Source of the DNA: Escherichia coli
GTDB lineage: Bacteria > Pseudomonadota > Gammaproteobacteria > Enterobacterales > Enterobacteriaceae
DNA: 64,000 bases
Reading direction: 5' to 3' (one strand)
Assembly (NCBI RefSeq): GCF_044647545.1
Contig: NZ_CP172818.1
The first letter of the stretch is position 1. Every line of letters starts with the position of its first letter. The translations under genes and the position numbers were made by a program. Under the pieces are notes generated by a model, which was not told where the DNA came from, did no database searches, and saw only the letters and a list, made by a program, of their open reading frames with translations. This document shows, one piece after another, positions 32,671 through 55,980 of this stretch.

Positions 32671-33126
32671 TTAGCCAGCCATTTGTTTTTCGCGAATTTC
32701 AGCCAGCGTTTTGCAGTCGATGCACAGATCGGCTGTCGGGCGCGCTTCCAGACGGCGAATACCAATTTCAACACCGCAGGACTCGCAGTAGCCGAAATCT
32801 TCGTCTTCCACTTTTTTCAGCGTCTTCTCGATCTTTTTGATCAGCTTACGCTCGCGATCGCGGTTACGCAGTTCGAGGCTGAACTCTTCTTCCTGGGCTG
32901 CACGGTCTACCGGGTCCGGGAAGTTGGCTGCTTCATCCTGCATATGTGTAACGGTGCGATCGACTTCATCCCTGAGTTGATTACGCCATGCTTCCAGAAT
33001 ACGACGGAAGTGCGCCAGCTGGGCTTCATTCATATACTCTTCGCCCGGCTTCTCCTGATATGGCTCCACCCCAGCGATGGCGAGAATACTCAGGGACGAT
33101 GTTTTACGGTTTTGCCCTTCTTGCAT
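32671..33126 (-). CDS. dksA: RNA polymerase-binding transcription factor DksA
   Basis: ORF 32671..33144; start at ATG 33126 ([31 protein letters not shown]...); C4 zinc finger [25 protein letters not shown]; 151 aa. Confidence 0.95.
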
Positions 33127-33303
33127 GTTGCTTCTCCTTAACACGCACTATCGATCCCCATGTTCGGGGGAAAAATGAGGCCGCTATAAATAGCAGATGC
33201 TTTTCCGGATAGCAATTATCTAAACGTAACACTTGACAACTGTGTGAGGAAAAGCGTATTTGCGCACGCGACCAGAATGTAAATTAACCAGTTACTTACT
33301 CTA

Positions 33304-34553
<1,250 letters not shown>

Positions 34554-51596: not shown

Positions 51597-53114
51597 ATGG
51601 CACAGATTGATTTCCGAAAAAAAATAAACTGGCATCGTCGTTACCGTTCACCACAGGGCGTTAAAACCGAACATGAGATCCTGCGGATCTTCGAGAGCGA
51701 TCGCGGGCGTATCATCAACTCTCCGGCAATTCGTCGTCTGCAACAAAAGACCCAGGTTTTTCCACTGGAGCGCAATGCCGCCGTGCGCACGCGTCTTACC
51801 CACTCGATGGAAGTCCAGCAGGTGGGGCGTTATATCGCTAAAGAGATTTTAAGCCGCCTGAAAGAGCTTAAATTACTGGAGGCGTATGGTCTCGATGAAC
51901 TGACCGGGCCCTTTGAAAGCATTGTTGAGATGTCATGCCTGATGCACGATATCGGCAATCCGCCGTTTGGTCATTTTGGCGAAGCGGCGATAAATGACTG
52001 GTTTCGCCAGCGTTTGCACCCGGAAGATGCCGAAAGCCAGCCTCTGACTGACGATCGCTGCAGCGTGGCAGCACTACGTTTACGGGACGGGGAAGAACCG
52101 CTTAACGAGCTGCGGCGCAAAATACGTCAGGACTTATGTCATTTTGAGGGGAATGCACAAGGCATTCGTCTGGTGCATACATTGATGCGGATGAATCTCA
52201 CCTGGGCGCAGGTTGGCGGTATTTTAAAATATACCCGTCCAGCGTGGTGGCGTGGCGAAACGCCTGAGACACATCACTATTTAATGAAAAAGCCGGGTTA
52301 TTATCTTTCTGAAGAAGCCTATATTGCCCGGTTGCGTAAAGAACTTAATTTGGCGCTTTACAGTCGTTTTCCATTAACGTGGATTATGGAAGCTGCCGAC
52401 GACATCTCCTATTGTGTGGCAGACCTTGAAGATGCGGTAGAGAAAAGGATATTTACCGTTGAGCAGCTTTATCATCATTTGCACGAGGCGTGGGGCCAGC
52501 ATGAGAAAGGTTCGCTCTTTTCGCTGGTGGTTGAAAATGCCTGGGAAAAATCACGCTCAAATAGTTTAAGCCGCAGTACGGAAGACCAGTTTTTTATGTA
52601 TTTACGGGTAAACACTCTAAATAAACTGGTACCCTACGCGGCACAACGATTTATTGATAATCTGCCTGCGATTTTCGCCGGAACGTTTAATCATGCATTA
52701 TTGGAAGATGCCAGCGAATGCAGCGATCTTCTTAAGCTTTATAAAAATGTCGCTGTAAAACATGTGTTTAGCCATCCAGATGTCGAGCAGCTTGAATTGC
52801 AGGGCTATCGGGTCATTAGCGGATTATTAGAGATTTATCGCCCTTTATTAAGCCTGTCGTTATCAGACTTTACTGAACTGGTAGAAAAAGAACGGGTGAA
52901 ACGTTTCCCTATTGAATCGCGCTTATTCCACAAACTCTCGACGCGCCATCGGCTGGCCTATGTCGAGGCTGTCAGTAAATTACCGTCAGATTCTCCTGAG
53001 TTTCCGCTATGGGAATATTATTACCGTTGCCGCCTGCTGCAGGATTATATCAGCGGTATGACCGACCTCTATGCGTGGGATGAATACCGACGTCTGATGG
53101 CCGTAGAACAATAA
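51597..53114 (+). CDS. dgt: Deoxyguanosinetriphosphate triphosphohydrolase (dGTPase)
   Basis: ORF 505 aa; HD-domain motif [11 protein letters not shown]...[12 protein letters not shown]. Confidence 0.95.
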
Positions 53115-53170
53115 CCAGGCTTTTGTAAAGACGAACAATAAATTTTTACCTTTTGCAGAAACTTTAGTTC

Positions 53171-53198
53171 GGAACTTCGCGCTATAAAACGAATCTGA
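53171..53198 (+). promoter_or_regulatory. Sigma-E (RpoE)-type promoter of degP
   Basis: -35 ggaactt (53171..53177) and -10 tctga (53194..53198) with 16-nt spacer, about 45 nt upstream of degP start. Confidence 0.75.
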
Positions 53199-53243
53199 AG
53201 AACACAGCAATTTTGCGTTATCTGTTAATCGAGACTGAAATAC

Positions 53244-54668
53244 ATGAAAAAAACCACATTAGCACTGAGTGCACTGGCTCTGAGTTTAGGTTTGGCGTTA
53301 TCTCCGCTCTCTGCAACGGCGGCTGAGACTTCTTCAGCAACGACAGCCCAGCAGATGCCAAGCCTTGCACCGATGCTCGAAAAGGTGATGCCTTCAGTGG
53401 TCAGCATTAACGTAGAAGGTAGCACAACCGTTAATACGCCGCGTATGCCGCGTAATTTCCAGCAGTTCTTCGGTGATGATTCTCCGTTCTGCCAGGAAGG
53501 TTCTCCGTTCCAGAGTTCTCCGTTCTGCCAGGGTGGCCAGGGCGGTAATGGTGGCGGCCAGCAACAGAAATTCATGGCGCTGGGTTCCGGCGTCATCATT
53601 GATGCCGATAAAGGCTATGTCGTCACCAACAACCACGTTGTTGATAACGCGACGGTGATTAAAGTCCAACTGAGCGATGGCCGTAAGTTCGACGCGAAGA
53701 TGGTTGGCAAAGATCCGCGCTCTGATATCGCGCTGATCCAGATCCAGAACCCGAAAAACCTGACCGCAATTAAGATGGCGGATTCTGATGCACTGCGCGT
53801 GGGTGATTACACCGTAGCGATTGGTAACCCGTTTGGTCTGGGCGAGACGGTAACTTCCGGGATTGTCTCTGCGCTGGGGCGTAGCGGCCTGAATGCCGAA
53901 AACTACGAAAACTTCATCCAGACCGATGCAGCGATTAACCGTGGTAACTCCGGTGGTGCGCTGGTTAACCTGAACGGTGAACTGATCGGTATCAACACCG
54001 CGATCCTCGCACCGGACGGCGGCAACATCGGTATCGGTTTTGCTATCCCGAGCAACATGGTGAAAAACCTGACCTCGCAGATGGTGGAATACGGCCAGGT
54101 GAAACGCGGTGAGTTGGGTATTATGGGCACTGAGCTGAACTCCGATCTGGCGAAAGCGATGAAAGTTGACGCCCAGCGCGGTGCTTTCGTAAGCCAGGTT
54201 CTGCCGAATTCTTCCGCCGCGAAAGCGGGCATTAAAGCGGGTGATGTGATCACCTCACTGAACGGTAAGCCAATCAGCAGCTTTGCCGCACTGCGTGCTC
54301 AGGTGGGCACTATGCCGGTAGGTAGCAAACTGACCCTGGGCTTATTGCGCGACGGGAAGCAGGTTAACGTGAACCTGGAACTTCAGCAGAGCAGCCAGAA
54401 TCAGGTTGATTCCAGCACCATCTTCAACGGCATTGAAGGCGCTGAGATGAGCAACAAAGGCAAAGATCAGGGCGTGGTAGTGAACAACGTGAAAACGGGC
54501 ACTCCGGCTGCGCAGATCGGCCTGAAGAAAGGTGATGTGATTATTGGCGCGAACCAGCAGGCAGTGAAAAACATCGCTGAACTGCGTAAAGTTCTCGACA
54601 GCAAACCGTCTGTGCTGGCACTGAACATTCAGCGCGGCGACAGCACCATCTACCTGTTAATGCAGTAA
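53244..54668 (+). CDS. degP: Periplasmic serine endoprotease / chaperone DegP (HtrA)
   Basis: ORF 474 aa; signal peptide, catalytic GNSGGAL, two PDZ domains. Confidence 0.95.
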   Translation: MKKTTLALSALALSLGLALSPLSATAAETSSATTAQQMPSLAPMLEKVMPSVVSINVEGSTTVNTPRMPRNFQQFFGDDSPFCQEGSPFQSSPFCQGGQGGNGGGQQQKFMALGSGVIIDADKGYVVTNNHVVDNATVIKVQLSDGRKFDAKMVGKDPRSDIALIQIQNPKNLTAIKMADSDALRVGDYTVAIGNPFGLGETVTSGIVSALGRSGLNAENYENFIQTDAAINRGNSGGALVNLNGELIGINTAILAPDGGNIGIGFAIPSNMVKNLTSQMVEYGQVKRGELGIMGTELNSDLAKAMKVDAQRGAFVSQVLPNSSAAKAGIKAGDVITSLNGKPISSFAALRAQVGTMPVGSKLTLGLLRDGKQVNVNLELQQSSQNQVDSSTIFNGIEGAEMSNKGKDQGVVVNNVKTGTPAAQIGLKKGDVIIGANQQAVKNIAELRKVLDSKPSVLALNIQRGDSTIYLLMQ

Positions 54669-54710: not shown

Positions 54711-54822
54711 ACAATCTGTGAACTTCACCACAACTCCATACATCTTCATCATCCTTTGGGCATTTGCACAATGCCGTACGTTACGTACTTCCTTATGCTA
54801 AGCCGTGCATAACGGAGGACTT

Positions 54823-55980
54823 ATGGCTGGCTGGCATCTTGATACCAAAATGGCGCAGGATATCGTGGCACGTACCATGCGCATCATCGATACCAATATC
54901 AACGTAATGGATGCCCGCGGGCGAATTATCGGCAGCGGCGATCGTGAGCGTATTGGTGAATTGCACGAAGGAGCATTGCTGGTACTTTCACAGGGACGAG
55001 TCGTCGATATCGATGACGCGGTGGCACGTCATCTGCACGGTGTGCGGCAGGGGATTAATCTACCGTTACGGCTGGAAGGTGAAATTGTCGGCGTAATTGG
55101 CCTGACAGGTGAACCAGAGAATCTGCGTAAATATGGCGAACTGGTCTGCATGACGGCTGAAATGATGCTGGAACAGTCGCGGTTGATGCACTTGTTGGCG
55201 CAGGATAGCCGTTTGCGGGAGGAACTGGTGATGAACCTGATTCAGGCAGAGGAGAATACTCCCGCACTTACTGAATGGGCGCAACGGCTGGGGATCGATC
55301 TCAATCAACCGCGAGTGGTGGCTATTGTTGAGGTCGACAGCGGTCAGCTTGGTGTGGACAGCGCAATGGCGGAGTTACAACAACTGCAAAACGCGCTGAC
55401 TACGCCCGAGCGTAATAATCTGGTGGCGATTGTCTCGCTAACCGAAATGGTGGTGTTGAAACCGGCGTTGAACTCTTTTGGGCGCTGGGATGCAGAAGAT
55501 CATCGTAAGCGAGTTGAACAACTGATTACCCGCATGAAAGAGTACGGCCAGCTGCGTTTTCGCGTTTCACTGGGCAACTATTTTACCGGTCCTGGCAGTA
55601 TTGCCCGATCCTATCGTACGGCGAAAACGACGATGGTGGTGGGTAAACAGCGAATGCCAGAAAGTCGCTGCTATTTTTATCAGGATCTGATGTTGCCTGT
55701 GTTACTCGACAGTTTGCGTGGCGACTGGCAGGCCAACGAACTGGCGCGACCGCTGGCGCGGCTGAAAGCGATGGACAATAACGGCTTGCTGCGGCGAACG
55801 CTGGCGGCGTGGTTTCGCCACAATGTGCAACCGCTGGCAACGTCAAAGGCGTTGTTTATTCATCGTAATACTCTGGAATATCGGCTTAATCGTATATCGG
55901 AACTGACCGGGCTTGATTTGGGCAATTTTGATGACAGGTTGCTGCTGTATGTGGCGTTACAACTGGATGAAGAGCGGTAG
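54823..55980 (+). CDS. cdaR: Carbohydrate diacid regulator CdaR (SdaR)
   Basis: ORF 54805..55980 (track start GTG); ATG 54823 gives MAGWHLDTKMAQDIVARTMRIIDTNINVMD...; C-terminal HTH; 385 aa. Confidence 0.9.
   Translation: MAGWHLDTKMAQDIVARTMRIIDTNINVMDARGRIIGSGDRERIGELHEGALLVLSQGRVVDIDDAVARHLHGVRQGINLPLRLEGEIVGVIGLTGEPENLRKYGELVCMTAEMMLEQSRLMHLLAQDSRLREELVMNLIQAEENTPALTEWAQRLGIDLNQPRVVAIVEVDSGQLGVDSAMAELQQLQNALTTPERNNLVAIVSLTEMVVLKPALNSFGRWDAEDHRKRVEQLITRMKEYGQLRFRVSLGNYFTGPGSIARSYRTAKTTMVVGKQRMPESRCYFYQDLMLPVLLDSLRGDWQANELARPLARLKAMDNNGLLRRTLAAWFRHNVQPLATSKALFIHRNTLEYRLNRISELTGLDLGNFDDRLLLYVALQLDEER

Follow-up and report, generated by a model that had tools for sequence, protein, structure and literature searches.

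The sigma-E-dependent promoter of Escherichia coli degP: motif, transcription start, conservation and neighbouring control elements

From which promoter is degP (htrA) transcribed in Escherichia coli, and is it a promoter of the sigma-E (RpoE) type? The question is raised by a GGAACTT-N16-TCTGA motif found upstream of this gene in a stretch of E. coli DNA of 64,000 nucleotides (NCBI RefSeq assembly GCF_044647545.1, contig NZ_CP172818.1), which was analysed as a whole and is called the window below. The sigma-E regulon was first defined from two promoters, one of them that of degP, and the dual control of the gene by sigma-E and Cpx is textbook knowledge. Both the sigma-E promoter and the CpxR site of degP are already known. 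The value of the locus is that of a positive control, a mapped promoter having been found to the base from sequence alone.

The genes of the locus are arranged in the order btuF, mtn, dgt, degP, cdaR and yaeH. The segment 52900-53500 matches 5424 of the 5426 complete E. coli genomes at at least 95% identity, and its best matches are 100% identical records in which dgt and degP are annotated by RefSeq. Between the end of dgt (53114) and the start of degP (53244) there is an intergenic region of 129 nt with 64% A+T. The motif is contained in this region, 46-73 nt 5' of the degP ATG. On the 3' side of degP, cdaR is described as a pseudogene ("incomplete; missing N-terminus") in the identical RefSeq record NZ_AP018808.1 (4926-6077). 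This interval corresponds approximately to 54805-55980 of the window, where the open reading frame has 391 aa and a GTG start. In K-12, cdaR is annotated as intact, and the pseudogene call is probably an issue of start-codon annotation.

The motif occupies exactly the coordinates given in the original prediction, 53171-53198, and its 16-nt spacing is likewise exact. Read directly from the window, the sequence around the promoter is ...cGGAACTTcgcgctataaaacgaaTCTGAagaaca... (the individual elements are listed in Table 1). GGAACTT-N16-TCTGA has a single exact match on the two strands of the 64-kb window, with 0.02 matches expected from dinucleotide-preserving shuffles. The relaxed pattern GAACTT-N15-17-TCNNA is at the chance level in the same window (2 found vs 1.29 expected). 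What makes the motif significant is thus the complete match, taken together with where it lies and how well it is conserved. The other relaxed sigma-E-like match, GAACTT-N17-TCTTA at 33330-33357 on the minus strand, is likewise at the chance level. It is located near the 3' end of a minus-strand ORF of 234 aa (33304-34008) and 5' of another minus-strand ORF of 157 aa (32671-33144). Going by K-12 coordinates, these two ORFs would be sfsA and dksA, respectively.

Table 1. Features of the dgt-degP region in the window. Relative positions are counted from the transcription start site (TSS) at 53204.
Feature	Position in window	Strand	Relative position	Remarks
CpxR site 'degP2', GTAAATTACCGTCAG	52975-52989	+	-229..-215	in 3' part of dgt; PMC9600279 Table S1
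CpxR-P binding region, GTAAA-gacga-ACAAT-aaatt-TTTAC	53125-53149		-79..-55	one perfect GTAAA per strand
A/T-rich stretch, possible UP-like element	53141-53170	+		73% A+T vs 49% in the window; overlaps CpxR box
Sigma-E -35 element, GGAACTT	53171-53177	+	-33..-27	7/7 to GGAACTT consensus (PMC1312014)
Spacer, CGCGCTATAAAACGAA	53178-53193	+		16 nt; GC vs K-12 AG at 53179-53180; conserved TATAAAA
Sigma-E -10 element, TCTGA	53194-53198	+	-10..-6	
Discriminator, AGAAC		+	-5..-1	5 nt; between TCTGA and TSS
TSS (A)	53204	+		40-nt 5' UTR; transferred from K-12 start 180844
HtrA 5' UTR RNA thermometer	53204-53249	+		fourU-type hairpin over Shine-Dalgarno GAGA 53231-53234; Rfam RF02700
degP (htrA) CDS	53244-54668	+		474 aa; ORF; 'serine endoprotease DegP' in identical RefSeq records

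In the genome-wide K-12 map of transcription starts by Kim et al. 2012, degP has a single start, 180844, with a 5' UTR of 40 nt; the upstream sequence printed with this start is TGCAGAAACTTTAGTTCGGAACTTCAGGCTATAAAACGAATCTGAAGAACA, ending ...GGAACTTCAGGCTATAAAACGAATCTGAAGAACA (PMC3415461 supplement). The map was transferred by way of the degP ATG, which is at 180884 in K-12 and at 53244 in the window. Transcription had been predicted to begin about 7 nt downstream of TCTGA, and the transferred start, which falls 6 nt past the last base of this element, does not contradict the prediction. According to the sigma-E model of Rhodius et al. 2006, the -35 element is GGAACTTTT and the -10 element is (T/C)GGTCAAAA (PMC1312014). 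The spacer of such promoters has 15-19 nt, with 16 nt strongly preferred; a discriminator of 5 or 6 nt is followed by a purine start, and a 30-nt window 5' of the -35 element is rich in A/T (PMC1312014). With the K-12 start transferred, all the geometric features of a sigma-E promoter are found at degP, namely the 16-nt spacer, the 5-nt discriminator and the start at A. The A/T-rich stretch at 53141-53170 is possibly a UP-like element, a function suggested by its base composition.

Transcription of degP is said to be sigma-E dependent in the work of Lipinska (1988) and of Erickson and Gross (1989). The older consensus GAACTT-N16-TCTGA was reportedly derived by Erickson and Gross in 1989 from the degP promoter together with rpoH P3. 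Agreement with a "textbook consensus" is therefore partly circular here, since the older consensus was drawn from the degP promoter itself and rpoH P3. The motif had been described as matching the RpoE consensus closely; this holds for the -35 element at every one of its seven positions, but less so for the -10 element, the weaker match of the two, since TCTGA has just 3 of 5 bases in common with the modern TCAAA (T, C and the last A). The C of the sigma-E -10 element, described as invariant (PMC1851643), is present. DegP belongs to the core sigma-E regulon (PMC1312014), and a review assigns degP to the control of sigma-E as well as of Cpx (PMC6737893). In a library of 60 promoters, degP was found among the basally active sigma-E promoters and was also an outlier in the model of in vivo promoter strength (PMC3326320). 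The latter is consistent with extra regulatory inputs at this promoter. A full-text literature search with the promoter sequence gave a knockout primer as the sole match.

Conservation was assessed by a scan of 80 Enterobacteriaceae degP loci, one genome per species; with the window added, 76 upstream regions were extracted, 70 of them distinct. Among the distinct regions, the -35 element is GGAACTT in 55, GGAACTA in 12 and TGAACTT in 3, and the core GAACT is kept in all 70. The -10 element reads TCTGA in 61 regions, TCTTA in 6 and TCTCA in 2. The spacer is 16 nt long in 67 regions and 17 nt long in the remaining 3. The upstream GTAAA stands at 45 or 46 nt from the -35 element throughout (70/70), and the CpxR box TTGTAAAGA....CAATAAATTTTTAC is nearly invariant among these Enterobacteriaceae sequences. 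In the spacer GCTATAAAA the per-position conservation is approximately 0.8-0.9 or higher, which is about equal to that of the -35 and -10 boxes. Conservation in fact extends over all of the sequence between about 53122 and the ATG in the 70 regions, the spacer and the leader included. It therefore speaks for a function of this entire segment and does not single out the -35 and -10 boxes. The prediction of a sigma-E promoter for degP is borne out by the geometry, the K-12 start, the core-regulon listing (PMC1312014) and the conservation, and it can be held with high confidence that the feature is the sigma-E-dependent promoter of E. coli degP/htrA.

Half-sites for CpxR (gtaaa) had been proposed just upstream, at about 53127..53160. 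The proposal is right, the first half-site being contained in a known CpxR site (PMC9600279 Table S1), but the coordinates are slightly different: GTAAA stands at 53125-53129 on the plus strand and at 53145-53149 on the minus strand (as TTTAC). The arrangement GTAAA-N15-TTTAC has a single match in the window against 0.03 expected. The sequence GTAAAGACGAACAAT at 53125-53139 is the site listed as 'degP1' (PMC9600279 Table S1). A criterion for CpxR sites is that they lie no further than about 100 bp from the TSS of a Cpx-regulated gene (PMC8831704). Counted from 53204, the box at -79..-55 lies inside this distance. When degP1 is read as a direct repeat, it gives GTAAA-N5-ACAAT, and the second half-site agrees with GTAAA at 2 of 5 positions. 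Binding of phosphorylated CpxR is reportedly documented by Pogliano et al. (1997) and De Wulf et al. (2002).

The contribution of CpxR to degP expression is seen from induction data. Expression of degP was induced 27-fold in cpxA24 and 32-fold on overproduction of NlpE; when cpxR was missing, NlpE induced it 6-fold (PMC9600279). The drop from 32-fold to 6-fold indicates that much of the inducible degP output under the NlpE condition is CpxR-dependent. The second listed CpxR site, 'degP2', lies approximately 27 nt 5' of a TATTAT hexamer (53016-53021, plus strand, inside dgt). A start about 7 nt past TATTAT (~53029) would give a leader of ~215 nt, like that of Salmonella htrAp1. A TSS near 53029 is absent from the K-12 start list (PMC3415461 supplement).

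Part of the conservation described above could belong to a second, overlapping promoter of the sigma-70 type. Its -10 element would be a hexamer inside the sigma-E spacer (53185-53190; TAAAAC in E. coli, TAAAAT in relatives), its start would be the G of TCTGA (53197), and it would be the main target of CpxR-P. Such a promoter is possible, though on balance rather doubtful, and it would add to the sigma-E promoter, not replace it. In its favour, the spacer GCTATAAAA is about as conserved as the two boxes, and its TATAAAA(C/T) (53183-53190) coincides with a second mapped TSS in Klebsiella and with the 47-nt leader of Salmonella. In Klebsiella pneumoniae, two degP TSSs have been mapped 9 nt apart, and the stronger of them (25 vs 11 reads) falls on the G of TCTG and lies 7 nt past TAAAAT; in E. 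coli, however, the hexamer is TAAAAC, without the final T, and no recognizable -35 element stands 17 nt upstream of it. Salmonella has a constitutive 5' UTR of 47 nt and a stress-induced one of 40 nt (PMC5602114), whereas the K-12 map gives 180844 alone for degP (PMC3415461). The outlier status of degP in the sigma-E in vivo strength model (PMC3326320) also speaks for an additional promoter, but a scan of 52900-53350 with the sigma-70 consensus found no site at the threshold used. Because of the TAAAAC hexamer, the negative sigma-70 scan and the sigma-E start standing alone in the K-12 map, E. coli may have the overlapping promoter in a weak form or lack it.

A more specific proposal, regarded as unlikely, is that the conserved spacer TATAAAA marks a CpxR-dependent sigma-70 promoter equivalent to Salmonella htrAp2 and to the upstream TSS of Klebsiella. 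Through the C/T difference at 53190 (TAAAAC vs TAAAAT), E. coli would then have this promoter turned down, and its relatives would have it switched on. If true, this single position would shift the share of constitutive vs stress-gated degP expression between genera.

Between dgt and degP (53115-53243), the scan of 52900-53350 revealed no intrinsic terminator-like structure at the threshold used, and read-through of transcription from dgt into degP may occur. It is nevertheless highly improbable that the motif is a chance one and that degP is transcribed by this read-through or from a promoter inside dgt like Salmonella htrAp1: the missing terminator-like site after dgt, the long Salmonella leaders of 215/449 nt that start inside dgt (PMC5602114), the listed CpxR site (52975-52989) and TATTAT (53016-53021) inside dgt and the chance level of the relaxed motif would all agree with such a reading, but the exact motif is expected only 0.02 times in the window, the mapped TSS is at the distance predicted by the sigma-E model, the motif is kept, with a spacer of fixed length, in dozens of genera, and promoters inside dgt would be additional, not alternative. 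Chance as the sole explanation is ruled out by the uniqueness of the motif, the published TSS 180844 and the conservation.

The sigma-E promoter of degP is followed by a leader with a control element of its own. The Rfam model RF02700 matches 53204-53249 with 77 bits (gathering score 52; E=1.7e-16) over its full length (1-46/46), and the first base of the model coincides with the TSS at 53204. In Salmonella, SHAPE and reporters demonstrated that the thermometer occludes the Shine-Dalgarno sequence in a temperature-dependent manner (PMC5602114). The predicted fold of the E. coli leader is weak, -3 kcal/mol, and no better than that of shuffled sequences (z-score 0.94). A weak predicted fold is expected of a thermometer and says little, and the covariance model is the informative test.

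The following scheme can be proposed for degP. RNA polymerase carrying sigma-E would bind GGAACTT (-33..-27) and TCTGA (-10..-6) across the 16-nt spacer and would begin the transcript with the A at 53204. Under envelope stress, the cell would release free sigma-E and in this way raise degP transcription. Phosphorylated CpxR on GTAAA-N15-TTTAC (-79..-55) would increase transcription further. The 40-nt leader, as an HtrA RNA thermometer, would place translation under added temperature control. In this scheme, the motif, its uniqueness, the geometry relative to the published TSS, the conservation and the covariance match were computed here, and the sigma-E dependence, the CpxR binding and the thermometer function are taken from the literature. 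Three layers of control are thus stacked in ~125 nt, comprising a response-regulator site, a promoter for an ECF sigma factor and an RNA thermometer. CpxR may act either via the sigma-E promoter or via an overlapping one with the sigma-70-like -10 element in the spacer.

Among the closest known systems is the sigma-E-dependent promoter degPp of K-12 MG1655. It shares with the window the locus, the -35 and -10 elements, the spacer length, the TSS position and the CpxR box, and the sequence 53095-53260 is identical but for two bases. K-12 has AG at spacer positions -25/-24 (53179-53180), outside both boxes, whereas the strain analysed here has GC. Of 5424 complete E. coli genomes, 4023 contain a 66-nt promoter query unchanged, and 1401 differ from it by 1-3 bases. 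Three divergent genomes that were examined (K-12, SC516 and EC-07) all have AG in the spacer, and their -35 and -10 elements are intact. The GC form of the spacer also occurs in other Escherichia species and in many other genera. Since the GC form is widespread in E. coli and its relatives, the AG form of K-12 looks derived. The GC allele presumably behaves like the K-12 allele.

Compared with the sigma-E consensus of Rhodius et al. 2006, the degP promoter has in common GGAACTT, the 16-nt spacer, a -10 element that begins with TC and ends with A, the 5-nt discriminator, the start at A and the A/T-rich upstream sequence. It differs in having TCTGA instead of TCAAA, CG instead of TT after GGAACTT, and no GG before TC. 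With the CpxR sequence GTAAA-N5-GTAAA of De Wulf et al. 2002, degP shares a perfect GTAAA half-site less than 100 bp from the TSS. Unlike that sequence, it has its second perfect GTAAA on the other strand at a distance of 15 nt, so that the repeat is inverted and not direct. The E. coli leader deviates from the RF02700 consensus by C in place of U at 53235 (GAGACUG vs GAGAUUG), which creates an A-C mismatch and weakens a pair of the stem.

Salmonella enterica htrA and Klebsiella pneumoniae degP have the orthologous intergenic region, the same -35 and -10 elements, the CpxR box and the 40-nt thermometer leader in common with E. coli. In both of these organisms an extra start is mapped 7-9 nt upstream, whereas the K-12 map shows the sigma-E start alone. 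Salmonella differs further by a distant start inside dgt, its promoters being designated htrAp1, p2 and p3.
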